Positions 4,193 through 61,018 of a stretch of DNA of 64,000 nt are shown piece by piece. Location: the NCBI GenBank assembly GCA_036275915.1, contig DASUCV010000018.1, positions 291,054-355,053 of the forward strand, given 5' to 3'. The DNA comes from Candidatus Polarisedimenticolaceae bacterium. GTDB lineage: Bacteria > Acidobacteriota > Polarisedimenticolia > Polarisedimenticolales > DASRJG01. Position numbers and translations under genes: made by a program. The notes beneath the pieces are model-generated. The model was not told where the DNA came from, made no database searches, and saw only the letters and a list, made by a program, of their open reading frames with translations. How positions within the stretch are numbered: position 1 is the first letter of the stretch; each line of letters begins with the position of its first letter.

Positions 4193-6151
4193 GTGCAGCG
4201 CATTCGCCTCCTCCGCGTCCTCCTGCCGATCTTCCTCATCGCCTTCATCATCGTGATCGGTCTCACGCTGCGCACCCGGCCGACGCGCACCGGGCTCCCG
4301 GCGGACCTCGCGAAGGACACGCGCGCGCACGCGGAGGGGTTCACCTTCAGCGATCTCGTCGCCGGCAAGCGGCGCCTCATGGTCCAGGCGAAGGTCGGAC
4401 GGGTCGACAACGCGGGCCGGTTCGACGTGGAGGAGGTTCAGCGCGTCGAGATCGAGCGGGAGAACCAACCGCCCCTCATCCTCACCGCGGCGCGGGGCGC
4501 CGGGGCCGGCCCTCAGGGCAAGAGGACCATGCGCCTCGAGGGCGGCGTCACCGTCCACGACGACGACACGGGGCTCGATCTCGCGATCCCGACGGTCGAG
4601 ATCGACCAGGTCACCGGTGTCGTGCGCTCCGTCGGCGACGTGACGATCACCGGCGCAGTCTGGAAGGGAAACGCCTCGGCGCTCATCTACAGCCTCACCG
4701 GACAGCCGGCGGAGATCATCGGCGTCCATGTCGTGGGAGTGGACGGCGCCGAGCTGTCCGCCCATCGCGCCGTCGTCGAGCCGAAGTCGCAGACGCTGAC
4801 GCTCGACGGCGACGTCGACGCGAAGCAGGGAGGGATGACGCTCAAGGCTCCGATCGTCGTCCTGGTCCGGGGACCGAAGGGAAAGATCGAGAGCGCGACG
4901 GCCTCGTCCCAGGTGAGCGGCTCGATGACGTCGTCGACGAGCGGCGCGGGGACGTTCTCCGCCCGGGAAGCGCGCGCGAACTGGGCGCCGGACGGGAAGG
5001 TGCGCGCGGTCTCGCTCTCCGGCGGCGCCCACGTCCAGCACATCCGGGGTGAGATCCTCGCCGACCGCATCGACGCGCAGGCTCAAGACGACGGAGGCTG
5101 GGCGCTCGACGCGACGGGGCAGGCGGTCGTGACCGGCCCGACGCAGAAGGGGACCGGCAAGCTGACCGCGTCCACGGTTCGCGCGCACCTCGGCGGCGAC
5201 GGCGAGATCAAGGACGGCGTCGCCACGGGCGACGTCACCTTCGACGGCGACGGGACGTCGGGCGAGGCTGCGCAGGCGACATTCTCCGGGCTCGGGTCCG
5301 AGGGCGAGGTCACGCTCCGCGGCGCACCGGAGCGGCGCGCGCGTCTCGCCAACGCCCGGACGCGCGTCGTCGCCGACTCGATCGAGAGCGACCTTAAGGG
5401 CACCAAGATGACGGCGGAAGGACGCGTCGAGTCGACGCTCCTGCCGGCCGCCAGCTCGGACAGGAGCGGGCCCCAGACGCCGATGTTCGCCACCGACGAG
5501 GCGGTCCATTTCGTCTCGACGTCGCTCGAGAGCACGAGCTCCGGCGCGCGTCTCCTCTTCCGCGGCGATGTCCGCGGATGGCAGGGCGACCGAACGCTCT
5601 CCGCCGACGAGGTCGAGATGATCCAGGAAGGTCAGATCCTGAACGCCACCGGCTCGGTCGTCACGCGCATGCCCCGGGTCGCGGGGAAGGCGGCGGGCGA
5701 AGCGGACTTCATCCAGGTCGTCGCCGACAAGCTCCGTTACGGCGGCACCGCGCACGCGGCGGAGTACAACGGGTCGGTGCGCGCGAGGCAGGTCGAGGGC
5801 TGGCTCGAGGCGCCGCGTCTCGTCGTCGCCCTCCTCGAGGGCGGACACGGCGTGCACGACGTCCAGGCCTACGACGGTGTCCGCTTCGAGTACCGCTCCC
5901 TCGGGGGCGACAAGGGCGCCGGCAAGGGCACGCCGACCCAGGCGACGGGAGAAGGGGATCGCGCGGTCTACGAGGCCGGCGAGCAGCTCCTTCGCCTCTT
6001 CGGAGACAAAGGGCCCGCGACCGTGCGCAACACCGGGCCGAGCGGCGGGACGACCGTGGGACGGGTGTTACGCTACCACCTCGATACGGGTGCCTTGGAA
6101 GTCGAGTCCGGTGAGCGTGACCGAGCGACCATCAAGACCCCCAAGAGCTGA
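4193..6151 (+). CDS. Membrane-anchored LptC/LptA (OstA-like) protein, unusually long (652 aa)
   Basis: An N-terminal TM helix ([19 protein letters not shown]) is followed by long beta-strand-rich, Gly/Thr/Val-rich sequence. The gene sits immediately upstream of lptB-rpoN-hpf, which is the conserved lptC-lptA-lptB-rpoN-hpf context. The domain call rests on context and composition, not on a recognised motif. Confidence 0.6.
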
Positions 6152-21300: not shown

Positions 21301-21364
21301 CCGGTGAATTCGAGGCCCGATCGCGGTATGAATGTTGCTGTGGTATGAGACCGGAGGTTCTCCC

Positions 21365-22465
21365 ATGAGCGCCTCGTTCCGTCACATCGCTCCGATCGCC
21401 CTCTCCGCCGCCCTCGCGATGTCTTCGGCCCTCGCGGGGCCTCGCATCGCCGTGCCGCATGGCGGGGGCGGAGCTCCGCGCAGCTTCGGCCACACGGTCC
21501 CGCACGCGGGAGGCGGAGTCCCGCGCGGCGGTCACGCGGTTCCCCACAGCGGCGGTGGAACTGGGATGGGTCATGCGTCGGCGCAGCGCGGCATGCCTCC
21601 GCCTCACGGCCAGGTGCCGGGTCACGGGACTGCGAACGGGATCGCGCGTTACGGCTATTACCACGGCGGCTACTACCCGTATTACGGCTACGGATACCCG
21701 TACTACGGTTACCCGTACTACGGATACTGGGGCTGGCCTTATTGGGGCTTCGGCTTCTACGGCAGCTGGGGCTACCCGTACTACGGCTACGGTTACTACC
21801 CGCCCAGCGACGCGGGCTACGGGATGGGGGACGCCCATCCGCAAACGCCCGCGGTCATCGAGACGAAAGTCAGTCCCGGCAGCGCCGAAGTCCTCCTGGA
21901 CGGCGAGTCGGTCGGTTTTGCGAAGGACTACAACGGTCACTGGGACGAGCTTCGGGTCTCACCCGGCAAGCACACGGTGAGCTTCCAGAACGGCGGCTAC
22001 AAAACTCTGACCTTCGACATCGACGTCATGCCCGGCGGTCACTATGTGCTCGACAACGACATGAGCGAAGGCTCGGGCGAGGAGCGCCGGACGATCGCCG
22101 CACCTCAGGCGCCTCAACGGCAGGCGGAAGGACCGGATCCCGGGTACGCCCCCAACGGCCAGCCGGGTGGTTACGCCGCCCCGAACGGGCCACCCTCGAG
22201 CGCGCCGCCGACGTTCCAGGAGAGCATGACGGTCGCCGGCGGGCGGATGACGATTCACGCGAAGCCCGACGATGCCGCGGTCTACCTCGACGGCGAGTAT
22301 CTCGGGACGGCGGGAGAGCTCGCGCGCCTGCATGGGGCGATTCCCGTCGCGACGGGGCCGCACCAGCTCCAGATCGTGCGTCCGGGTTTCTCGAGCGACG
22401 CGAGGACGGTGGAAGTCGGCGGCCCCGACGTCACGCGGGTCGACGTCACGCTCGCGAAGCAGTGA
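21365..22465 (+). CDS. Secreted protein: signal peptide + His/Gly repeats + Tyr/Gly/Pro/Trp-rich low-complexity region + two PEGA-like domains
   Basis: 366 aa from ATG 21365 (GGAGG upstream). Signal peptide MSASFRHIAPIALSAALAMSSALA. Three repeats of about 14 aa, VPH-x-GGG. An aromatic stretch RYGYYHGGYYPYYGYGYPYYGYPYYGYWGWPYWGFGFYGSWGYPYYGYGYY. Two PEGA-like beta modules (PGSAEVLLDGESVG...GKHTVSFQNGGY and PDDAAVYLDGEYLG...GPHQLQIVRPGF). Confidence 0.75.
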   Translation: MSASFRHIAPIALSAALAMSSALAGPRIAVPHGGGGAPRSFGHTVPHAGGGVPRGGHAVPHSGGGTGMGHASAQRGMPPPHGQVPGHGTANGIARYGYYHGGYYPYYGYGYPYYGYPYYGYWGWPYWGFGFYGSWGYPYYGYGYYPPSDAGYGMGDAHPQTPAVIETKVSPGSAEVLLDGESVGFAKDYNGHWDELRVSPGKHTVSFQNGGYKTLTFDIDVMPGGHYVLDNDMSEGSGEERRTIAAPQAPQRQAEGPDPGYAPNGQPGGYAAPNGPPSSAPPTFQESMTVAGGRMTIHAKPDDAAVYLDGEYLGTAGELARLHGAIPVATGPHQLQIVRPGFSSDARTVEVGGPDVTRVDVTLAKQ

Positions 22466-25106: not shown

Positions 25107-25135
25107 CTTGACCGTGCCGCGCATGGGAACTATGT
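25107..25135 (+). promoter_or_regulatory. Sigma70-type promoter for the MglA-like operon (TTGACC-17-TATGTT)
   Basis: TTGACC 25107-25112, 17-nt spacer, TATGTT 25130-25135, 57 nt upstream of ATG 25193. Confidence 0.55.
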
Positions 25136-25192
25136 TCGCGCCGATCCCCGAGGGCAGATCCTAGACGGGGTGTGGGAAAGGGGTGGTCTTCG

Positions 25193-26617
25193 ATGGTCCT
25201 GTTCAATTACTCGACGCGCGAGCTCACCGCGAAGATCGTCTATTACGGCCCGGGCCTCTGCGGAAAGACCACCAACCTCCAGTTCATCCACGAGAATCTG
25301 CCGGGCGAGGTCCGCGGGAAGATGCTCTCGCTCGCGACGAAGACCGACCGGACGTTGTTCTTCGACTTCCTGCCGATCGATCTCGGCGAGATCCGGGGCA
25401 TGAAGACGAGGGTGCAGCTCTACACCGTCCCCGGACAGGTCTTCTACAACGAGACGCGCAAGCTCGTGCTGAAGGGCGCCGACGGGATCGTCTTCGTCGC
25501 CGACTCGCAAGGGACGATGCTCGGCGCCAACGTCGAGTCGTTCAAGAACCTCGAGGAGAACCTGAAGGCGCACGGCATGAAGCTCGGCGAGATGCCGCAC
25601 GTCATCCAGTTCAACAAGCGCGATCTCGCGAAGCTCACCGGAATCGAAGACTTGAACGCAGCGCTCAACAAGTACAACGCGCCGTTCTACGAGTCGGTCG
25701 CCACGACCGGCATCGGCGTTCAGGACACGCTCAAAGCGATCGTGAAGCTCGTGTTGCTCCATCTCACGCGCAAGTACGATCCGAAGTCGCTGCCTCCGGC
25801 GCACGAGACGCCCTCGGCGGCCGTCGCCATGTCTCAGCCTGCGCCGGTGCCGCAGGCCCCGGCACCTGTCCCCACCCCCGCTCCCGCACCCGTTGCGCGC
25901 GCGGCCGCCCCGGCGAAGCCCGCGGTCCCCGCACCGCGCAAGGCGCCGAAGGCGGCGCCGGCGATCGCGCGCACGCCGCCGCCCGTCGAGACGATGCCCA
26001 AGTTCCAGGAGGCCGAGATCGACGACCTGGTCGGTGAGGTCGGCGAGCACGATGCGCCGCCGATCCCGGAGCCCGCGCCCGTGGCCGCCGCCGCGACGAC
26101 GGCAGCCGAAGACGGCGTCTGGATGGGGGCCCCGGAGGGCGAGGACACCTTCGCCGGTTCGACCGTCTCCCTCGAGGACCTTCTGTCGCACGAGGCGAAG
26201 GCGGCTCCCGAGGCCCCGCCCGCGGCCGATTGGCGTGACAACCCGGCGGCGCGTTCGGGGTTCGAGATCGACCGCGGGTTCGACCCGGAGTGGAAAACCC
26301 CCGCGGCTCCGCAGTCCGCCGCATCGCGCGCGCCGCGCACGCCCGTACCCCCCGCAGCGCCGCCCGCGGCCGACGACGACCGGCCGATCGCTCCGTTCCC
26401 GATTCCCTCGCCGGGGATCGAAGACGAGAGGGACGAGGATGTCGTCCTCACCGAGGTGGCGAGCAACGACGATCTCTTCAACGATCCGACACTCGACGTC
26501 GCGCAGATGGCCGAGGGAGCGATGCGGGAGATCCTGGTTCCCGTGATGCTCGGCGAGGGGCGCCATGCGAAGCGCTTCAAGCTCTCGATCCGCCTGCGGC
26601 TCGAACCGGTCGACTGA
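25193..26617 (+). CDS. MglA-type Ras-like GTPase (N-terminal ~195 aa) fused to a ~280-aa Pro/Ala-rich, acidic C-terminal extension
   Basis: 474 aa from ATG 25193 (GGGAAAGGGG upstream). The G domain is nearly colinear with Myxococcus MglA: FNYSTRELTAKIVYYGPGLCGKTTNLQ, TDRTLFFDFLPIDLGEIRG, LYTVPGQVFY (TxxGQ instead of DxxGQ), IVFVADSQ, QFNKRDL, ATTGIGVQDTLKAIVKLVL. Residues ~196-474 are PAPVP-type low complexity and end in ...REILVPVMLGEGRHAKRFKLSIRLRLEPVD. Confidence 0.85.
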   Translation: MVLFNYSTRELTAKIVYYGPGLCGKTTNLQFIHENLPGEVRGKMLSLATKTDRTLFFDFLPIDLGEIRGMKTRVQLYTVPGQVFYNETRKLVLKGADGIVFVADSQGTMLGANVESFKNLEENLKAHGMKLGEMPHVIQFNKRDLAKLTGIEDLNAALNKYNAPFYESVATTGIGVQDTLKAIVKLVLLHLTRKYDPKSLPPAHETPSAAVAMSQPAPVPQAPAPVPTPAPAPVARAAAPAKPAVPAPRKAPKAAPAIARTPPPVETMPKFQEAEIDDLVGEVGEHDAPPIPEPAPVAAAATTAAEDGVWMGAPEGEDTFAGSTVSLEDLLSHEAKAAPEAPPAADWRDNPAARSGFEIDRGFDPEWKTPAAPQSAASRAPRTPVPPAAPPAADDDRPIAPFPIPSPGIEDERDEDVVLTEVASNDDLFNDPTLDVAQMAEGAMREILVPVMLGEGRHAKRFKLSIRLRLEPVD

Positions 26618-26663
26618 GCGCGCGGAACCGGCGCGCCGCTTGAGACGGCCTTATCCTCGACGT

Positions 26664-27581
26664 ATGGCCTGGAAGCATCGCTCGTCGATCGCCGTCGTCC
26701 TCGCCGCAGGCGCGCTCGCCGCGACCCGCGCCGGGGCCGTCACCGAGCCGCCGCCCGATCCGATCCGCCTCGGCCTCTACGAGTGGATGGCGGTGGCGCC
26801 GATCGTCGTCGCCGCAGACGTTCTCGTCGACGACGGCAAGTACATCCAAGCGATGACCCGCGAGCCGATCAAGGGAGCCGTCCCCGCGCGAACGACCCTC
26901 TACGTCGACCTCAAGCGGGCCAACCGCGATCGCGCGGTCGGAGTCAAGGCTCTCGATCTCGCGCGGGGCCGTGGCTATCTGCTCCTCCTCGAGGCCGCGC
27001 CGCAGAAGGCGTCGGCGCCGAGCCCGCTCTACGATCTCGTGCGCGGAATCTCCGGCGCCCGCGAGATTCCGAAGGAGGCGCCCGGACCGCTGCTCGAGGC
27101 CGCCGCGAAGCTCGCGGACATCCAGGAACGAAAGACCGACAGCTTGCTGTGGTCGTCGGTGCCCGAGTTCCTCGAAGATCCGAATCCGGTCCTCGTCGAT
27201 GCCGCGCTCGAGCTGGTCGTCAAGTTCCGGAAGGAGACTCTCGATCTCCTCCCATCCCTGACACCGCTCCTCGAGTCGCCGCGACCCGACGTCCGTCAGC
27301 GCGCGGTGGTCCTCATCGGGCGCGTTCTCGTGCGCCAGGGGGCGGAGGCCGTGCCCGAGCGCAGCACGATCGTCGCGGAGATCACCGGCCGCGCACGGCG
27401 CGACGACGACGTCGAGGTTCGCCGCGCCGCGACCGCCGCGATCTCGACCCTCGCCGACGCCGGCGTCGACGAAACGCTGAAAACGATCTCGCACGATGAT
27501 CCCGATCAGAACGTCAGGTTCGAGGCCGAGAAGGCGCTCTACGAGCGGAAGCTCTCCGGCCGAGGGGGAGGCACCGATTGA
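26664..27581 (+). CDS. Signal-peptide protein with C-terminal HEAT/ARM-like repeats
   Basis: 305 aa from ATG 26664. Signal peptide MAWKHRSSIAVVLAAGALAATRAGA. Three or more HEAT-like repeats follow (DPNPVLVDAALELV, SPRPDVRQRAVVLIGRVL, DDDVEVRRAATAAISTL, DDPDQNVRFEAEKAL). Confidence 0.65.
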   Translation: MAWKHRSSIAVVLAAGALAATRAGAVTEPPPDPIRLGLYEWMAVAPIVVAADVLVDDGKYIQAMTREPIKGAVPARTTLYVDLKRANRDRAVGVKALDLARGRGYLLLLEAAPQKASAPSPLYDLVRGISGAREIPKEAPGPLLEAAAKLADIQERKTDSLLWSSVPEFLEDPNPVLVDAALELVVKFRKETLDLLPSLTPLLESPRPDVRQRAVVLIGRVLVRQGAEAVPERSTIVAEITGRARRDDDVEVRRAATAAISTLADAGVDETLKTISHDDPDQNVRFEAEKALYERKLSGRGGGTD

Positions 27582-28399
27582 CCACCAAAGAAACCGTGAA
27601 CAAGGTCGAGGACGTGGCACCGGCGGCGAAGGCGAAGGGGATGGCCGCCAACCCGTTCCAGAACTTCATGGTGCGCTACGGTGCCGGGGAGCGGATCTTC
27701 ACCGAAGGTGACCTCGGCACGACGATGTACATCGTGCAGTCGGGTAAGGTCCGTCTGTTCCGCGTCGCGGAAGGGGTCAAGCGCGTCCACGGAACGATGG
27801 AGAAGGGAGACTTCTTCGGGGAGATGTCGATCCTCGAGGGCTTGCCCCGGACGATCTCGGCCGAGTCCGTCGAAGACTCGGAGCTGATCGAGATCAACAG
27901 CATGACCTTCGACAAGATGATCAAGGGGAACATCGAGATCGCGATCCGCATGCTGCGGAAACTCTCGATCCGTCTCCGCGAGTCGGAGCGCCGCATCGAG
28001 ACGCTGCAGGCCGACGGCCGCACCGCGGCGGCGTCGCGACCGGTCGCCCCTGTGGCACCGCGGCCCTCGTCCGCGGCGGGGAGCGGCACGCGTCTCGAGG
28101 TGGAAGGGGAGGGAACGATCTTCCCCGTGGGCACGCAGGAGACGCTTATCGGCCGCTTCGATCCGGTGACCGAGCTCATGCCCGACGTCGACCTCACCCA
28201 GGTCGACCTCAAGCGATCGGTCTCGCGGCGCCATGCGCGGCTCGTGCGCGCGAGCGACGGATTCACGCTGACGGAAGAGGTCGGCGCGCTGAACGGCACC
28301 TTCGTGAACGGCACCAAGCTCGTCACCGGACGGCCGCACCCGCTGCAGGACGGCGACAAGGTCAGCTTCGGGATGGTCAAGCTCGTCTTTCGGGCATGA
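27578..28399 (+). CDS. Cyclic-nucleotide-binding domain / FHA domain fusion protein
   Basis: 273 aa from TTG 27578 (GAGGGGGAG upstream; overlaps the previous stop). The cNMP-binding beta-barrel reads YGAGERIFTEGDLGTTMYIVQSGKVRLF, GDFFGEMSILEGLPRTISAESV. The FHA domain reads LIGRFD...VSRRHARLV...NGTFVNGTKL...LQDGDKVSFG. Confidence 0.85.
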   Translation: MTTKETVNKVEDVAPAAKAKGMAANPFQNFMVRYGAGERIFTEGDLGTTMYIVQSGKVRLFRVAEGVKRVHGTMEKGDFFGEMSILEGLPRTISAESVEDSELIEINSMTFDKMIKGNIEIAIRMLRKLSIRLRESERRIETLQADGRTAAASRPVAPVAPRPSSAAGSGTRLEVEGEGTIFPVGTQETLIGRFDPVTELMPDVDLTQVDLKRSVSRRHARLVRASDGFTLTEEVGALNGTFVNGTKLVTGRPHPLQDGDKVSFGMVKLVFRA

Positions 28400-28980
28400 G
28401 CGGAGCCCGCGTCGCTGCGGCGACGCTCGCGGCCGTGCTTGCCGCAGCACCGCTCCATGCATCGTCGTCGCCCCCGCTCCCGTACCGCTTGGCGGTGGAG
28501 GTGCGGTGGGGCGCCGGCGGGGGGCCGGAGGCGTTCCGCGACGACGTCGCCCGCGCGCTCGCCGATGCCTTCACCGGGCGGTGCTACGCCGCGGCGAGCG
28601 CCGGCGCGGACGACCCGTCGGCACCCGCCGATCTCCACCTCGCCGTCTCGCTTTCCGCCCTCAAGGAGCAGCTGCGCTTTCTCGACTCGATCTCGACCTC
28701 CTTGGCGCCCGGCGATCCCGCCAAGGAGCTTCGGCGCACGGCGCTCTTCGACGTCAACGTCGACGGAGCGCTGACGACGGCGGGGGCGGCACCCGTTCAG
28801 GCCAAGCACTTCGTCGTCAGCGTGTCGCGCCAACCGACGATGCTCGGCGAGGACCCCCAGATCACGGCACGCACGTTCGCCGTCGAGCGGATCGTGGACG
28901 AGCTCGGCAAGGCGATGTGCAAGGGGCAGGACAAGCTCGACAAGAAGATCAAGGCGGCGCTCACGCAACCCGCGCGTTGA
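28396..28980 (+). CDS. Hypothetical secreted protein (signal peptide, no recognised domain)
   Basis: 194 aa, with an ATGA overlap with the cNMP/FHA gene. Signal peptide MSGARVAAATLAAVLAAAPLHA. It is the last gene before trpS. Confidence 0.5.
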   Translation: MSGARVAAATLAAVLAAAPLHASSSPPLPYRLAVEVRWGAGGGPEAFRDDVARALADAFTGRCYAAASAGADDPSAPADLHLAVSLSALKEQLRFLDSISTSLAPGDPAKELRRTALFDVNVDGALTTAGAAPVQAKHFVVSVSRQPTMLGEDPQITARTFAVERIVDELGKAMCKGQDKLDKKIKAALTQPAR

Positions 28981-38254: not shown

Positions 38255-40657
38255 ATGCTCCGCAAGCGTCGAATCACCCTCTACCTGCTCTCGGAGCTGG
38301 GTCTTGCGACCCTGGTCGGGATCTCCGTCTGGACTGTCATCCTGATGATGAACGACCTGTTCTTCATCGCGCGCCAGGCGATCCAGAAAGACCTCGGCCT
38401 CGACCTCGTCCTTCAGATCCTCGCGCTCAGGATCCCGAACCTCCTGATCCTGGCGATCCCGATCGGGACCCTCCTCGGATCGCTCATCGCGATCGGGCGC
38501 CTCTCGGCGGACGGCGAGATCGTGGCGCTCCAGGCGATCGGCCTCGGACCGCGCCAGCTGCTGGGGCCGATGGCGATCCACGGGACGCTCGCGTTCGTGG
38601 CGGCCATCTCGATCTACGCCTTCATCCAGCCATGGGCCAGCTACGAAGGCCGCCTGATGCAGGGCAAGATCCTGAACGCCCGGAACGTCAGCACCGAGCT
38701 ACGTCCACGCGTCTTCTTCGACAAGGTGCCGGGCTACGTCATGTTCGTCGACGAGATCCCACCAGGCACCCAGGGGGTCCTCCAGCGCGTCCTCTTTTAC
38801 GAGGCAGCTGATCCGAAGGGGTCGCTGGCCGAGAAGCTCATCCTCTCCAAGGACGCCGCGATCGGGCCCTCGGCCGCCCGGGAGGGCGAGATTCGCCTGG
38901 TCTTCAAGGACGGCGTTCAGCACACGGTGAAGATCGACGACCCGGACTCCTACCAGGTCTCGCAGTTCCAGGTGCTGTCTCCGCTGCCCCTCGAGCTTCC
39001 GGCATGGATGCGCCCGACCGACGAAGTCCCCGGAAAGACGGTCGCGGACATGACCCCCACCGAGCTCCTCCAGGAAACGCGCGACGCACGCAACGAGCCC
39101 GACAAGACCCTTCGCACGTATCGGATGCGATGGGCGGCGACCGAGATCCACCGGCGCTTCGCGCTGCCTCTCGCCAGCCTTCTCTTCGCATTGCTCTCCC
39201 TACCGCTCGGTGTGTCGCGGGTTCGGAGCGGCAAGGGCGCGGGATTCGCGCTCAGCCTCGGGATCGTCCTCATCTACTACCTGCTCTTCACGGTCGGCCT
39301 CGAGCAATCGAAGGACGGCCGACTTCCGGCTTGGATCGGCATGTGGGCGGGTAACTTCGTGATCGCCGTCTGGGTCGTCATCGCCTTCGCGAGGATGAGC
39401 CGCCCGTCGCGGCCACCGTTCTGGGCTGGAGTCGTCGAGCGCCTCAAGCGTCTCGTGCCTCACCGCAAGGCGCGGCCCGATCCGGCTCCCCCGTCGCCGT
39501 CGCTCCTCGAGGCCGCGGCCGCCGATTTTGGGCCGATTCCGCGGCGCCGACTCTCGGGCCTTCTCGACCGTTACGTCGGGTCGCTCTATCTCCGCACCCT
39601 CGGGCTCGCGCTCGCGGCGACGTACCTCATCTTCACGCTCCTCGAGCTGAAGTCGCTGATCGACGCGACGCTCGAGCGCAAGCAGCCGGCGATACTCATC
39701 CTTGTCTACCTCAAGTACTTCATCCCAGGGGTCCTCATCTTCGCGCTCCCCTTCGCCGCGATGATCGCCGCGGTCGTTTCCGTCACCGTTCTCGGACGCA
39801 CGGGCGAGATCACCGCGATGAAGGCGGCGGGCATCAGCGCGCGGCGGATCTGCCTTCCGATCGTGATCCTCACACTCTTCTGCTGCGTCGGCCTTCACCT
39901 GGTGCAGGATCGGATCGCGCCGGAGACGAACCGCCGGGCCCAGGCGGTCAAGGACCAGATTCAGGGAAGGAACCCGCGTACCTACGGTTGGACGCCGGGA
40001 GGCCGCTGGATGTTCGGGAGCGGCGGCCGCCTCTACCATTACCGGCTCTTCGACCCGGCGAATCTTCGATTCCAAGGACTGTCGGTCTACCGGCTCGATC
40101 TGGCGCGAGCACGTGTGTTCGAGCAGTGGTTCTGCGCATCGGCGCAGTGGAACGGTGCGAGCTGGGACGTCACCAAGGGCTGGTACCGCTCGTTCCCCGA
40201 GCCAGCGGTCGTCGGAGAGTACAGGCGCTTCGAGGAAGACAAGATCACGAGCTTCGACGGTCCCGAGACGTTCGCGCGGAAGGAGCAAACGCTCGTCGCG
40301 AGCGACCTCCCGGAGCAGACCTCGATCGCGGATCTACGCCAGGAGATCGAGATGCTCGCCAAGGGCGGCTACGACACGACGCGCCTCAAGGTCGATCTTT
40401 GGCAGAAGACGTCGTCCGTCGTCACTCCGCTCGTGACCGTCATCCTCGGGCTGCCCTTCGCGTTCAAGGTCGGGCGCCGGGGCTCGATGTACGGCGTCGG
40501 GGTCGGGCTCATCCTGGCGATCGTCTTCTGGGCGGTCGCCGCGATCTCGAACGCGCTTGGCCTCGAGACAATCCTCGCTCCGTTCCTGTCTGCGTGGGCG
40601 CCCGACGTGCTGTTCGCGGTGATCGGAATTTATTTATTACTGTTTATTCCGACTTAA
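38255..40657 (+). CDS. Fused LptF/LptG-type (YjgP/YjgQ family) LPS export permease, two permease modules in one 800-aa ORF
   Basis: The first module starts at RITLYLLSELGLATLVGISVWTVILMMNDL. The second starts near nt ~39540 at LLDRYVGSLYLRTLGLALAATYLIFTLLELKSLID. Each module has a periplasmic beta-rich insert and C-terminal TM helices. One uninterrupted frame. Confidence 0.8.
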   Translation: MLRKRRITLYLLSELGLATLVGISVWTVILMMNDLFFIARQAIQKDLGLDLVLQILALRIPNLLILAIPIGTLLGSLIAIGRLSADGEIVALQAIGLGPRQLLGPMAIHGTLAFVAAISIYAFIQPWASYEGRLMQGKILNARNVSTELRPRVFFDKVPGYVMFVDEIPPGTQGVLQRVLFYEAADPKGSLAEKLILSKDAAIGPSAAREGEIRLVFKDGVQHTVKIDDPDSYQVSQFQVLSPLPLELPAWMRPTDEVPGKTVADMTPTELLQETRDARNEPDKTLRTYRMRWAATEIHRRFALPLASLLFALLSLPLGVSRVRSGKGAGFALSLGIVLIYYLLFTVGLEQSKDGRLPAWIGMWAGNFVIAVWVVIAFARMSRPSRPPFWAGVVERLKRLVPHRKARPDPAPPSPSLLEAAAADFGPIPRRRLSGLLDRYVGSLYLRTLGLALAATYLIFTLLELKSLIDATLERKQPAILILVYLKYFIPGVLIFALPFAAMIAAVVSVTVLGRTGEITAMKAAGISARRICLPIVILTLFCCVGLHLVQDRIAPETNRRAQAVKDQIQGRNPRTYGWTPGGRWMFGSGGRLYHYRLFDPANLRFQGLSVYRLDLARARVFEQWFCASAQWNGASWDVTKGWYRSFPEPAVVGEYRRFEEDKITSFDGPETFARKEQTLVASDLPEQTSIADLRQEIEMLAKGGYDTTRLKVDLWQKTSSVVTPLVTVILGLPFAFKVGRRGSMYGVGVGLILAIVFWAVAAISNALGLETILAPFLSAWAPDVLFAVIGIYLLLFIPT

Positions 40658-51171: not shown

Positions 51172-52217
51172 CGGCTCTTCGCTCCCGTGAGATCGCTCAC
51201 CAGTGCTTCCAACACCGCCCCCTTGTCGATCCCGCTGCTCTTGAGCGCGCGATCGGCCCGGTAGAGCTTCGCCGGCATCGCCCTGAGCTCGGCCAGGCTG
51301 TACCGCGTGAGACCGTCCGCGAGCGCGTCTCGAAAGTACCAGGCGCGCGAGGCGTCGACGACGTCCTTCGGCGCCATCCCACCCTCGCGGAGCGCTTTCG
51401 CCCGGAGGAGCGCCCGCGCGCGCGAGGCGAGACCGCCGAGTGCGCGGATCGGCTCGCCGCCCGCGTCGAGCAGCCGGCGGGCGGCGGCGGCCGCGTCTTC
51501 GGGGCGTCGGGCGGTCACTGCATCGGCGAGCTCCCAATCCTCGAGGAGGCCCGAGCCCGCGACGAGCGCCCGCGCGGTCGTCGCGTCGAGCGCGGTCGAC
51601 GCACCGCCGAGGAAGCTCGCCATCTTCTCGATCTCGCCCGCCGCCCGGTGGAGATCCGCGCCGCAGACGTCGAGCACGAGCGCGAGCGCGTCCGGCTCGA
51701 GCGCGACCCCGGCCTCACGACCCATCGCTGTGATCGTGTCGGCGACCGCGCGCATCTCGACGTCGCCCGCGGCGCGCCGGAACTCGAGGAGCCGGCCGCT
51801 CTCCGCGAGCGCCTTGTGCAGCTTGCGCTTCCGGTCGAGCTTCGGGGCGCGCACGAGGAGGAAGCTCGCCTCGGGCGGCTTCGCGGCGTACGCGACGAGC
51901 GGCTCCGGATCGCCCTCGAGGCCCGAGACGTCGCGGAGGAAGACGACACGGCGCGACGCGAACATCCCCGACGAGCGCGCGGCGCCGACGAGCGCCCCGG
52001 CGCTGACCGGCGTGTCGCCGAGGATCGAGAGCGCGAAGGCGTCGGCCGGATCGGGCACGAGCTTGGCGAGCAGCGCCGCCTGCGCGCGATCGAGGTGATA
52101 GAGATCGTCGCCCGTGAGCACCGTGAGGCCGGGCCGCCAGCCGGAGGCGAGGTCGGTCTCGAGCCGGCGGAGGACCGCACCGCCCCAGGGGCCGGGGTGC
52201 GCCCGTGAGAACGCCAT
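51168..52217 (-). CDS. holA: DNA polymerase III delta subunit
   Basis: 349 aa from ATG 52217, with an ATGA overlap with guaA. Length, helical C-terminal half and the conserved leuS-lptE-holA order support the call. Motif-level similarity is modest. Confidence 0.8.
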
Positions 52218-52729
52218 CAGAACCCCTCGGTGATCGAGGCCACGAGCGTCTGCGCCGCCCCCTGGGCGAGCGTGTCGAGGGCGAGCGTCTCGAGGTCGAA
52301 GTAGTTCACGTCGGTCTGCTGCACGTCGTACTGGTCGCGGAAGACGAGGTTCGACTGGCTCCACAGGAGCTGGCCGGTCGCCAGATTCCTGAGCGACGAC
52401 CGCAGCACGATCGCCGTCTCGAGGCGCGTCGCACGCCCCTGCGCGTTGAACTGCACGGGGGTCGTCCGGAAGTCGGTGATCACCCCCTCGAGGAGCGCGT
52501 TCGCGTCGGCGCGATTGCTCACGACCTTGACGCCGCCGCGGCGCGAGAGCTCGCGCGCCACCGCCTCGGTCGTCCGCACCTCGATCTCGGGCCGGGCGCT
52601 CCGGTTCTCGAACGGGGCGACGACGATCGTCTTGATCTCGGGCGGGAGGAACGATCCGGTACCGGAGAGGCGGTAGCCGCACCCCGCCGACGCCACGAGG
52701 AGCACGGTGGCGGCAGCCCTCCGGATCAT
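52217..52729 (-). CDS. lptE: LPS-assembly lipoprotein LptE-like
   Basis: 170 aa. The lipobox LVASAGC is followed by GYRLSG (compare LptE GC-G-W/F-H-L-R). Its position between leuS and holA matches the conserved synteny. Confidence 0.65.
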   Translation of the reverse strand: MIRRAAATVLLVASAGCGYRLSGTGSFLPPEIKTIVVAPFENRSARPEIEVRTTEAVARELSRRGGVKVVSNRADANALLEGVITDFRTTPVQFNAQGRATRLETAIVLRSSLRNLATGQLLWSQSNLVFRDQYDVQQTDVNYFDLETLALDTLAQGAAQTLVASITEGF

Positions 52730-59995: not shown

Positions 59996-61018
59996 GTGCC
60001 GCCTCTCGCCGCAGCCCTCGCCGGGGGGGCGATCCTCCTCGCCGCCGTCCTCGCGTCGGCCCTCGTTCTGAGGTCGCGCCGGGCCGCTGCCGCCGCGGCC
60101 GAGGAAGCCGCGTCACGCGCGTCGGAGCTCGCCGTCCTCCAGGCCCTCGGCCTCGATCTCGCCTCGGCGCGGAGCGCCGGCCAGGCGTTCGCCGCGGTCG
60201 ATCGCGAGTGCCGCAAGCTCCTCGCCGCCGACGAGGTCGCGCTCGGTCTCGTCCTGGGCGACGGACCGGAGATGACGGTCCACGCCCGCGCCGCGGCCGA
60301 GCGGGAGGCGCGCCTCCTCCGCGCGCCGGTCCCGCGCGACCGGCGGCCGTCATCGCGCGACGGGGCGCTCACCGTCCCCCTGGTCTCCGGCGACGCGATC
60401 GTCGGGACGCTGACGGTGAAGCTCCGGGCGGGCGGTGCTCACGAGGACCGCGATCTCACCGCTCTGACCGCCCTGTCCGCTCCGGTAGCGCTCGCGGCCC
60501 TCGCGCTCCGTGTCCGGCACGAGGCGACCCACGATCCGTTGACGGGACTCGCGCTCGGTGACGTCGTCGCCTCACGGCTGACCGAGGAGCTCGCGCGCGC
60601 GGAGCGCCACGGCCAGCGTGTGGCCGTCATCATGGCCGATCTCGACGGCTTCCGTGTCGTCACGGAGCGGTACGGTTCCGACGCCGCCGACCGGTTCCTC
60701 GCCGCGGCTGCGGACGCCCTCCGCCGTGAGCTCCGCGCGAGCGACCTCGTGGTCCGTCACCGCGCCGACGCTTTCTGCGTCCTCCTTCCGGCGACAGGCA
60801 TCCTGGGCGCCGACCGGCTCGCGGAGCGCATGCGCGGCGCGATCGCTCGTCTCCAGGTCGTCCACGGAGACGCGACGCTCCAGGCCACGGCGTCGTTCGG
60901 TGTCGCGGCCCATCCCGAGCACGGGGCGACGGCCCGTACGCTCCTTTACCGCGCCGACGCCGCGCTCCACCGGGCGAAGCGCGCGGGGCGAGACCGCGTC
61001 GCGATCGCGACCGTCTAG
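59996..61018 (+). CDS. Membrane-anchored GGDEF-domain protein with degenerate active site (RADAF) and retained RxxD I-site
   Basis: 340 aa from GTG 59996. There is an N-terminal TM helix and a GAF-like middle region. The GGDEF fold reads HDPLTGL, VIMADLDGFRVV, RASDLVVRHRADAFCVLLP, ASFGVA, ADAALHRAKRAGRDRV. The GG(D/E)EF position reads RADAF (60761-60775). Confidence 0.8.
   Translation: MPPLAAALAGGAILLAAVLASALVLRSRRAAAAAAEEAASRASELAVLQALGLDLASARSAGQAFAAVDRECRKLLAADEVALGLVLGDGPEMTVHARAAAEREARLLRAPVPRDRRPSSRDGALTVPLVSGDAIVGTLTVKLRAGGAHEDRDLTALTALSAPVALAALALRVRHEATHDPLTGLALGDVVASRLTEELARAERHGQRVAVIMADLDGFRVVTERYGSDAADRFLAAAADALRRELRASDLVVRHRADAFCVLLPATGILGADRLAERMRGAIARLQVVHGDATLQATASFGVAAHPEHGATARTLLYRADAALHRAKRAGRDRVAIATV

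Follow-up and report, generated by a model that had tools for sequence, protein, structure and literature searches.

A conserved four-gene set around a long orphan group-1 MglA in Acidobacteriota

A long MglA and its neighbours in the window

In Candidatus Polarisedimenticolaceae bacterium, a soil/sediment acidobacterium, a 64,000-nucleotide stretch of contig DASUCV010000018.1 (the whole of which is hereafter called the window) contains four genes, termed gene 1 to gene 4 (g1 to g4), that lie head to tail on the + strand, as a preliminary description made from the sequence alone had proposed. Gene 1 encodes a Ras-like GTPase of the MglA type with a long C-terminal tail, gene 3 a cytoplasmic protein that combines a cyclic-nucleotide-binding (cNMP) and an FHA domain, and genes 2 and 4 exported proteins. 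Together they may well constitute a vertically inherited, clade-specific functional gene set of Acidobacteriota, present in Polarisedimenticolia and deeper relatives and centred on a long orphan group-1 MglA. The anatomy and conservation of the set are solid, and the mechanism discussed below is hypothetical.

MglA is the paradigm of bacterial Ras-like spatial switches, and knowledge of it comes almost entirely from Myxococcus, Thermus and Bdellovibrio. MglA proteins of the TxxGQ type are normally encoded beside MglB, their GTPase-activating protein (GAP), which has a Roadblock/LC7 fold. The Acidobacteriota are abundant in soils and sediments and are difficult to culture.

Related loci, labelled L0xx or L1xx, were collected in two ways. 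A one-genome-per-species scan gave 27 loci, all from Acidobacteriota and including the complete genome of strain Mor1, and a metagenome scan with a gene 3 profile gave 80 further loci. All open reading frames (ORFs) of these loci were searched with profiles of genes 1 to 4 and with the proteins that flank the set in the window. Residues of gene 1 were checked in an alignment of 23 homologues and in 30 orthologues.

Gene 1 carries a group-1 MglA G domain

The G domain of gene 1 had been described as nearly colinear with Myxococcus MglA and as containing the TVPGQ motif. The alignment bears this out: residues 3-192 match M. xanthus MglA (PDB 6h17) without gaps, with 116 of 190 positions identical (61%; E 1e-74). 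The Pfam Ras family also matches gene 1 (E 4e-5). The P-loop GPGLCGKT, G21, R53-T54, T78-VPGQ82 and NKRD are all present. In particular, G21, R53, T78-VPGQ82, N141, D144, L64, I67 and K185 are invariant in 30 of 30 orthologues and K181 is kept in 29 of them, while T78-VPGQ82 and R53-T54 are also invariant across the 23 homologues. A TVPGQ G3 motif and an intrinsic Arg finger beside the G2 Thr are hallmarks of group-1 MglA (PMC4316618). Judged by the sequence of its G domain, gene 1 is a group-1 MglA, and it keeps all residues that MglA needs for GTP binding and hydrolysis. In M. xanthus, L64, I67, K181 and K185 make up the pocket in which the acidic C-terminal helix (Ct-helix) of MglB is bound, and positive residues in alpha5 co-vary with a D/E-rich MglB Ct-helix (PMC6785124).

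Comparison of identities across loci places the G domain among the most constrained sequences of the region, above the essential GTPase Der: it is 73-92% identical where Der is 43-79% and ScpA 43-78% identical. This strong constraint excludes a decaying paralogue, an alternative that the preliminary description had raised.

No Roadblock protein had been recognized among the neighbouring genes, and Pfam scans of the window genes likewise gave no match to Robl_LC7. A phmmer search with M. xanthus MglB (identical to PDB 6h5b_B) found nothing in ORFs of at least 50 amino acids (aa) in the window and 111 loci, a search with limited sensitivity to very divergent Roadblock proteins, and no MglB was found within 8 kb of the set in about 60 related loci. 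Since no mglB lies within four genes of it, gene 1 is an orphan by the published criterion (PMC4316618). Thus, the lack of an adjacent MglB stands, but it is not unprecedented: a survey of 449 MglA-family genes counted 59 orphans, SofG and Bdellovibrio MglA among them (PMC4316618). That survey was restricted to proteins of 150-240 aa, so that the 474-aa product of gene 1 would have been excluded; the acidobacterial MglAs in it are two, both short, from Chloracidobacterium (MglB>MglA) and Koribacter (orphan) (PMC4316618). In another survey, 9 of 70 MglA-bearing species lack MglB (PMC3983030).

The likeness of gene 1 to MglA of M. xanthus and T. thermophilus lies in the gapless 61% G domain, GPGLCGKT, Arg53-Thr54, TVPGQ82, NKRD and the pocket residues. 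It differs from them in its length (474 versus about 195 aa), a conserved 278-aa tail, the absence of a nearby mglB and a constant position between der and scpAB, and it falls outside the single-domain size (150-240 aa) and the coupling to MglB by which group-1 MglA is defined. SofG and Bdellovibrio MglA are closer precedents, being group-1 G domains that work without an adjacent MglB (PMC4316618, PMC3983030), and SofG, going by its description, also has extra sequence beyond the G domain. However, Ala or Ser occupies position 21 in 5 of 9 MglB-lacking species (PMC3983030), whereas gene 1 keeps Gly21 in 30 of 30 orthologues, unlike the Bdellovibrio type with Ser/Ala21. Bdellovibrio MglA acts through a helical-repeat (TPR) partner and RomR (PMC3983030); the HEAT protein encoded by gene 2 has a signal peptide and so, unlike the TPR partner, cannot meet the GTPase in the cytoplasm. 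Compared with the known orphans, gene 1 has a family-specific tail and C-terminal module, and its partners are different.

The C-terminal tail of gene 1

The main peculiarity of gene 1, overlooked in the preliminary description, is its conserved tail, which is composed of 20% Ala, 18% Pro and 16% Asp+Glu. A homologue search showed that full-length members of the long-MglA family range from about 400 to 565 aa. Across the 23 homologues, the tail is mostly unalignable linker with conserved islands. The island at aa 271-283 is an acidic amphipathic motif kept in the 23 homologues and in distant loci (EQEIDDLVGEV in L017 and DDVIELVDEVD in L051), and acidic amphipathic motifs occur in all long-MglA tails, variant types included (EIDDLVGEV, DDVIELVDEVD, SDDDLF). 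In the island at aa 357-367, D360 and D364 are invariant and F357, G362, F363, P365 and W367 nearly so. Further islands read W-MG-PE, LEDLL and PIAPFP.

The tail ends in a module with the family form VLLTEVASDxDLFxDPxLEVAxL..G..REIVVPVxLGEG..ARRFKLSIRLRLDPVD. A profile of this module gave 134 matches among 1.84 billion representatives, mostly at, or a few residues from, the C-terminus; the exceptions are about a dozen very long repeat proteins that match in the strand region only, within internal repeats. The C-terminal matches that were examined all proved to be long MglAs, either whole or as fragments truncated at the N-terminus, and the module is therefore a signature of the long-MglA family. 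It is also the sole confident part of an AlphaFold2 model of full-length gene 1 built from a 23-sequence alignment (predicted local distance difference test, pLDDT, 77-82; strands 444-453 and 460-469). The model as a whole has a mean pLDDT of 47, with a G domain that is also poor, because the alignment is shallow and nearly invariant, and it is too poor for questions of tail docking.

By eye, the SDxDLF and EIDxLV motifs of the tail resemble the MglB Ct-helix EISDDDIDNLF (PMC6785124). In RomR, a Pro-rich linker precedes a Glu-rich C-terminus whose Trp and Pro are invariant, and each of these two parts directs the protein to the pole (PMC3441718). The tail of gene 1 parallels this output part, in composition and layout only, with a Pro-rich linker followed by acidic segments with Trp and Pro. 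Elements that reside on separate MglB and RomR proteins in Myxococcus would in gene 1 be fused to the GTPase.

The partner genes

The signal peptide and HEAT-like repeats previously seen in gene 2 were borne out by a HEAT_2 match (E 4e-11). The protein begins with a Sec signal peptide that carries an AxA site, continues with an N-domain (aa ~30-150) to which no fold was assigned and ends in PBS-type HEAT repeats (aa ~150-300). The n, h and c regions and the AxA site are conserved in four orthologues. In a profile search of PDB sequences, the HEAT half alone was matched, with alphaRep/HEAT structures reaching E 8e-16. Identity across loci is 27-57%. A profile-profile comparison of gene 2 with gene 4 showed no relation.

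Gene 3 had been read as a cNMP-binding domain fused to FHA, and Pfam agrees, with matches to cNMP_binding (PF00027; E 1e-21) and FHA (PF00498; E 4e-13). The phosphate-binding cassette FGEMSILEGLPRT is intact in gene 3 and in the clade of the window, and FHA residues G171-R172, S195-R-R-H198 and N218-G219 (numbered from the ATG at 27641) are invariant in the gene 3 alignment. By sequence criteria, the protein has a CRP/PKA-type cNMP-binding domain and a phospho-threonine FHA domain, and binding of both ligands is predicted. Its identity across loci is 43-83%. In NCBIfam, the FHA domain has a weak match to GltG (E 0.0017). The window yielded neither an adenylate or guanylate cyclase nor a Ser/Thr kinase able to feed gene 3; the only other second-messenger gene seen there encodes a GGDEF diguanylate cyclase (59996-61018). 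Distant cNMP-FHA loci without a nearby MglA are found in L103 (4196-10936), L107 (7929-10855), L113 (7728-10776) and L066 (6638-10600). In three MglA-less loci, recG directly follows the cNMP-FHA gene and trpS-scpA-scpB lie a few kilobases further downstream. In L103, the cNMP-FHA gene is preceded by genes for a DUF4388-SPOR protein and a YacP-like NYN protein, and the neighbours in L066 are genes for a GAF-HD protein and a secretin.

Gene 4 had been described as a signal-peptide protein with no recognized domain. It has no match in Pfam or NCBIfam, and its profile found none among PDB sequences. The signal peptide ends in AxA/LHA-S with no Cys, so that a lipobox is absent. One Cys of the protein, Cys63, is invariant, and another lies near the C-terminus. 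Homologue searches gave 12 proteins each, whether by single sequence or by a 20-sequence profile, and identity across loci is 21-46%, the BLASTP comparison giving 23-44% for the loci in which it detects gene 4. An AlphaFold model from 18 distinct homologues (pLDDT 86; predicted template modelling score, pTM, 0.79) was compared with the PDB by Foldseek, and matched LptE, PelC, CsgG, PqiC, FlgT and GNA1162 (E 3.5e-7 to 1e-3; probability 1.0; template modelling (TM) score 0.37-0.47), the best match being LptE 8h1s_B (E 3.5e-7). According to this model, gene 4 has an LptE/PelC/CsgG-like fold and not a Roadblock/LC7 fold. The fold is typical of periplasmic, outer-membrane-proximal and often ring-forming proteins. 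Gene 4 shares with lipoproteins of this type a beta-alpha-beta-beta…beta-beta-alpha two-layer fold and export from the cytoplasm; it differs from LptE in having no lipobox, no match to the LptE Pfam family (PF04390) and low TM scores (0.37-0.47). At another position (52217-52729), the window encodes a bona fide LptE.

Conservation of the gene set

The order g1-g2-g3-g4 recurs almost throughout the 27 genome loci and the roughly 18 metagenome loci that are long enough to show it, which confirms the synteny on which the preliminary description had made its proposal depend. The order is kept across Acidobacteriota down to 43-48% Der identity. It is retained in a distant clade (L024-L031) in which Der is 44-47% identical; gene 4 is detectable by profile only in L030 and L031 of this clade, and a g4-like ORF is still present elsewhere, e.g. 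L025:11893-12420. Insertions and deletions involve yihY, the PEGA-domain gene and trpS on either side of the set and never fall within g1-g2-g3. The identities of genes 1 to 4, set against those of Der and ScpA, indicate that all four genes are maintained. Among the fetched loci, gene 2 and the close form of gene 3 (at least 53% identity) are found beside a long MglA only. L033 is an exception to the order and lacks gene 2, and in L051 an Rce1-like protease gene and unknown genes lie between genes 1 and 3.

Gene starts, junctions and promoters

The features of the set are listed in Table 1. The window has a G+C content of 69%, and real genes in it are recognizable by a third-position G+C content (GC3) above 80%; the four ORFs have GC3 of 84-89%, resembling neighbouring genes.

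Table 1. Features of the gene set in the window
Feature	Position	Strand	Description
Promoter P1	25108-25136	+	TTGACC-17-TATGTT, 5' of gene 1
Gene 1	25193-26617	+	Long orphan group-1 MglA by sequence, 474 aa; G domain aa 1-196, disordered Pro/Ala-rich linker, short motifs, C-terminal module
Acidic amphipathic motif (gene 1)	26003-26041	+	F271-Q-E-A-E-I-D-D-L-V-G-E-V283; consensus F-x-E-x-EIDxLVGEV
Tail motif (gene 1)	26261-26293	+	F357-E-I-D-R-G-F-D-P-E-W367; family form FExDRGFDPEW
C-terminal module (gene 1)	26417-26614	+	aa 409-474; acidic SNDDLFNDP segment, then beta-hairpin (REILVPVMLGEG…RFKLSIRLRLEPVD)
GCGCGC-7-GCGCGC stem	26618-26636	+	Spacer between genes 1 and 2, no U-tract
TATCCT box	26652-26657	+	6 nt 5' of gene 2 start; candidate -10
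Gene 2	26664-27581	+	Exported HEAT protein, 305 aa
Promoter-like site P3	27578-27606	+	TTGACC-17-CAAGGT, internal, 5' of gene 3
Gene 3	27641-28399	+	Cytoplasmic cNMP-binding + FHA protein, 252 aa, ATG start
Gene 4	28396-28980	+	Exported protein, 194 aa, LptE/PelC/CsgG-like fold (modelled)

The ATG of gene 1 is preceded by GGGAAAGGGG, and a GTG at 25172 is an alternative start. The 46-nt gap between genes 1 and 2, with its GCGCGC stem and no U-tract, is as first reported. The sequence of the stem is not kept in orthologues, and it is probably not a terminator. A scan of the 24-30 kb region of the window found no terminator-like sites, and an Rfam search of the same region gave no match.

Genes 3 and 4 overlap by ATGA at 28396-28399, as proposed, and since an (A/G)TGA overlap recurs in most orthologues, the sequences suggest that this pair is probably translationally coupled. 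The TTG/TGA junction of -4 nt at 27578-27581, which had been taken as a similarly coupled start of gene 3, did not survive comparison. Every gene 3 orthologue begins with MA-x-NPFQNF, corresponding to the ATG at 27641; in the 273-aa ORF that starts at TTG 27578, the upstream 21 codons are unconserved and have in-frame stops in most orthologues, and this start was rejected. TTG 27578 falls within a conserved GATTGAC -35 box of the internal site P3, which accounts for the spurious start.

The promoter ahead of gene 1, previously placed at 25107-25135, is real and lies one base further downstream. It is the sole sigma-70-like match in the 24-30 kb region, where 0.2 would be expected from shuffled sequences. 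A CTTGACC-N17-(A/T)TATGTTCG box is present 5' of gene 1 in about 20 orthologous loci with different spacers, flanks and 5' untranslated regions, and this conservation across loci is much stronger evidence than the scan hit in the window. In P3, the -10 of the window is degenerate (CAAGGT at 27601-27606) and too weak for the scan to call. Orthologues have TTGAC[T/A/G]-17/18-TAAGAT at this position, and the promoter scan flagged it in L005 (10434-10463) and L037 (7932-7961), alongside the gene 1 promoter. On this comparative evidence, the set has at least two conserved sigma-70 promoters, P1 for gene 1 and perhaps gene 2, and P3 for genes 3 and 4. The original proposal of a single-promoter, fully coupled operon thus fails at the junction of genes 2 and 3, where gene 3 has its own conserved promoter, and holds at the overlap of genes 3 and 4. 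The start of gene 2 lacks a Shine-Dalgarno sequence, and C(A/T)CTAT(C/G)CTGA is found 5-7 nt 5' of it in about 10 close orthologues (L003, L005, L007-L011, L034, L037). This TATCCT box, with no evident -35, hints at a candidate -10 at leaderless-mRNA distance and a third transcription start. The stop codons of genes 2 and 4 each lie within a TTGACC hexamer, and in L037 a TTGACC-17-TATCGT sequence lies directly 3' of gene 4, ahead of trpS.

Genomic neighbourhood

The set is not the stand-alone module of the preliminary description, being embedded in a conserved der-(yihY)-...-(trpS)-scpA-scpB-rluB block. Its conserved upstream flank consists of genes for a low-molecular-weight (LMW) phosphatase and an unknown protein, comEC, genes for an M50 peptidase, (PEGA) and HU, der and (yihY), and the downstream flank of (trpS), scpA, scpB, rluB, S1, HU and miaB. 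Essentially every confident ORF of the window was scanned against Pfam, and the genes identified were housekeeping genes only, including dnaK, a sigma-70-family sigma factor gene, rpoN, lpt genes, valS, comEC, der, yihY, trpS, scpA, scpB, rluB, S1, miaB, parAB, dnaE, guaA and leuS. PADLOC was also consulted for a defence system; it returned generic cNMP-domain and HEAT matches only, with no system-specific protein model, and this candidate was rejected.

The PEGA-domain protein (21332-22465), whose gene is variably present in orthologous loci, has a Gly/Tyr/Pro/Trp-rich low-complexity stretch (…YGYYHGGYYPYYGYGYPYYGYPYYGYWGWPYWGFGFYGSWGYPYYGYGYY…) past its signal peptide. Elsewhere in the window, an 800-aa protein (38255-40657) has two LptF_LptG matches and is apparently a fused LptF-LptG permease, and in a 652-aa protein (4193-6151) LptC-like regions are combined with repeated LptA/LptD_N-like ones. 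The architecture of either protein is unusual for Lpt.

Proposed function and alternative explanations

As a working mechanism, gene 1 would be a GTP-dependent spatial or assembly switch, as MglA is, and its tail would supply localization and/or regulation, perhaps including allosteric control in cis; in Myxococcus these functions reside on separate proteins, in the acidic helix of MglB or RomR and in RomR's Pro-rich linker. Gene 3, through its cNMP-FHA protein, would relay cyclic-nucleotide and phospho-threonine signals to the switch or to the target on which it acts. The periplasmic products of genes 2 and 4 would be part of an envelope structure that is placed or assembled by the switch, with an inner-membrane link encoded elsewhere. 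That the four genes work together is what we infer from their sequences and conservation. The Agl-Glt focal-adhesion platform of M. xanthus likewise joins an MglA-type switch with FHA-containing (GltG) and envelope proteins; however, the present set includes no other Glt/Agl genes, gene 3 is soluble and has a cNMP domain, and the set of the window lacks a zinc ribbon (ZnR)-GYF gene. The view that this composition was undescribed is upheld, as nothing relevant on an MglA that is long or extended at the C-terminus, or on MglA with FHA and cNMP, came up in literature searches. Orphan MglAs are already known; the long tail, the acidic motifs and the partner set are new.

Several observations weigh against a functional set. 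Synteny in the genomes that carry the set extends over the whole 20-kb region, with the LMW phosphatase and comEC genes at one end and miaB at the other, so that conserved adjacency alone is no proof of a functional module and may simply be inherited. Genes 1 and 3 have separate conserved promoters and gene 2 may have its own; two products are cytoplasmic and two periplasmic, and the set encodes no membrane-spanning partner. Interaction among the four proteins is a proposal drawn from sequence, and the likeness of the tail to the MglB Ct-helix and RomR is one seen by eye. Gene 3 copies of the distant clade (L023-L031, L033; e.g. L025 11113-11883) lack the phosphate-binding Arg, their cassette having changed from GLPRT to GGTYG, GKPYG or GRPYP, with the FHA domain intact. 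These copies may no longer bind cyclic nucleotide, and the Arg loss means that cyclic-nucleotide sensing is not constant across the set. Further, cNMP-FHA relatives with 42-50% identity occur without MglA within 8 kb, and in L022 (9329-15031) and L032 (9315-12359), the genes after der and a long MglA are not genes 2 to 4 but another set. This alternative set comprises a Zn-ribbon membrane protein, with an added GYF_2 domain and thus a GltJ-like architecture in L022, and a homologous secreted protein of 430-460 aa. A 1009-aa DUF294-type nucleotidyltransferase joins them in L022, and a LolA-like protein in L032. The Zn-ribbon(-GYF) gene directly follows the long MglA in L032 and lies one gene further in L022. 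GltJ of M. xanthus is a ZnR-linker-GYF membrane protein whose linker binds MglA-GTP and whose GYF domain binds a proline-rich sequence, and, in the published view, the occurrence of ZnR-GYF proteins does not follow that of MglA outside Myxococcales (PMC11135422). Given GltJ, it is plausible that an MglA-type switch is linked to trans-envelope machinery, and by this analogy the variant loci would fit a long MglA wired to envelope-spanning machinery. Most of these same observations favour an explanation in which the four genes are neighbours only, gene 1 being the tailed MglA orthologue of its lineage, with MglB, RomR or other partners encoded elsewhere, and genes 2 to 4 unrelated envelope and signalling genes in a conserved housekeeping block. 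The separation of the long MglA from gene 3 in L051 and the retained K181/K185 pocket, which implies an acidic-helix partner and possibly a trans-encoded MglB or RomR, point the same way. We regard this explanation as possible but less probable than a functional set, since gene 2 and the close gene 3 form accompany the long MglA alone among the fetched loci, indels at the borders spare the interior, no terminator was found anywhere in the set, and the long MglA precedes exported or membrane proteins in both locus types.

A self-contained, MglB-independent switch, in which the tail does in cis what MglB and RomR do in trans, appears rather unlikely. One or both of the acidic motifs at aa 271-283 and 424-432 would dock in the alpha5/beta2-beta3 pocket, where they would govern nucleotide exchange as well as the beta-screw, and the Pro-rich linker and C-terminal hairpin would mediate localization. 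Such a switch is consistent with the pocket residues L64, I67, K181 and K185 being kept in 29-30 of 30 orthologues, with the co-variation of alpha5 charge and the MglB Ct-helix, with acidic amphipathic motifs in every long-MglA tail, distant types too, with the absence of a nearby MglB and with the comparable, pole-targeting layout of RomR. However, the similarity of the motifs is one judged by eye, the single-chain AlphaFold model is poor, and an acidic helix alone is no GAP, so that GTP hydrolysis would depend on a Roadblock-like helper or on a fast intrinsic reaction; in addition, the absence of MglB refers to the window and the related loci. An extended form of this proposal, in which the long MglA is an autonomous switch, independent of MglB, that has absorbed MglB and RomR elements and forms, with a cNMP/phospho-threonine reader and HEAT and LptE-fold proteins, an unrecognized envelope-organizing system that is core to a deep branch of Acidobacteriota, is similarly doubtful and is put forward as speculation. 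It is most improbable that gene 1 is a paralogue in decay or that the set forms a mobile or defence island, a view favoured by the missing adjacent mglB and nothing further: the G domain is among the most conserved protein segments of the region, the GC3 of all four ORFs matches that of their neighbours, the set holds a fixed chromosomal position in all loci and no mobile-element genes adjoin it.

Significance

Long MglAs represent an unstudied MglA family with more than 100 sequence clusters in Acidobacteriota. Even if the four genes were neighbours only, the analysis describes a new subfamily of long MglAs and corrects the gene starts and promoters. As part of a functional set, the cNMP-FHA and envelope proteins suggest an input (a second messenger and a Ser/Thr kinase) and an output (an envelope structure) unlike the control of motility in Myxococcus. 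If the tail does regulate the switch in cis, the family would offer a compact system in which to dissect the allosteric pocket of MglA and would represent a new way to build a GTPase cycle.

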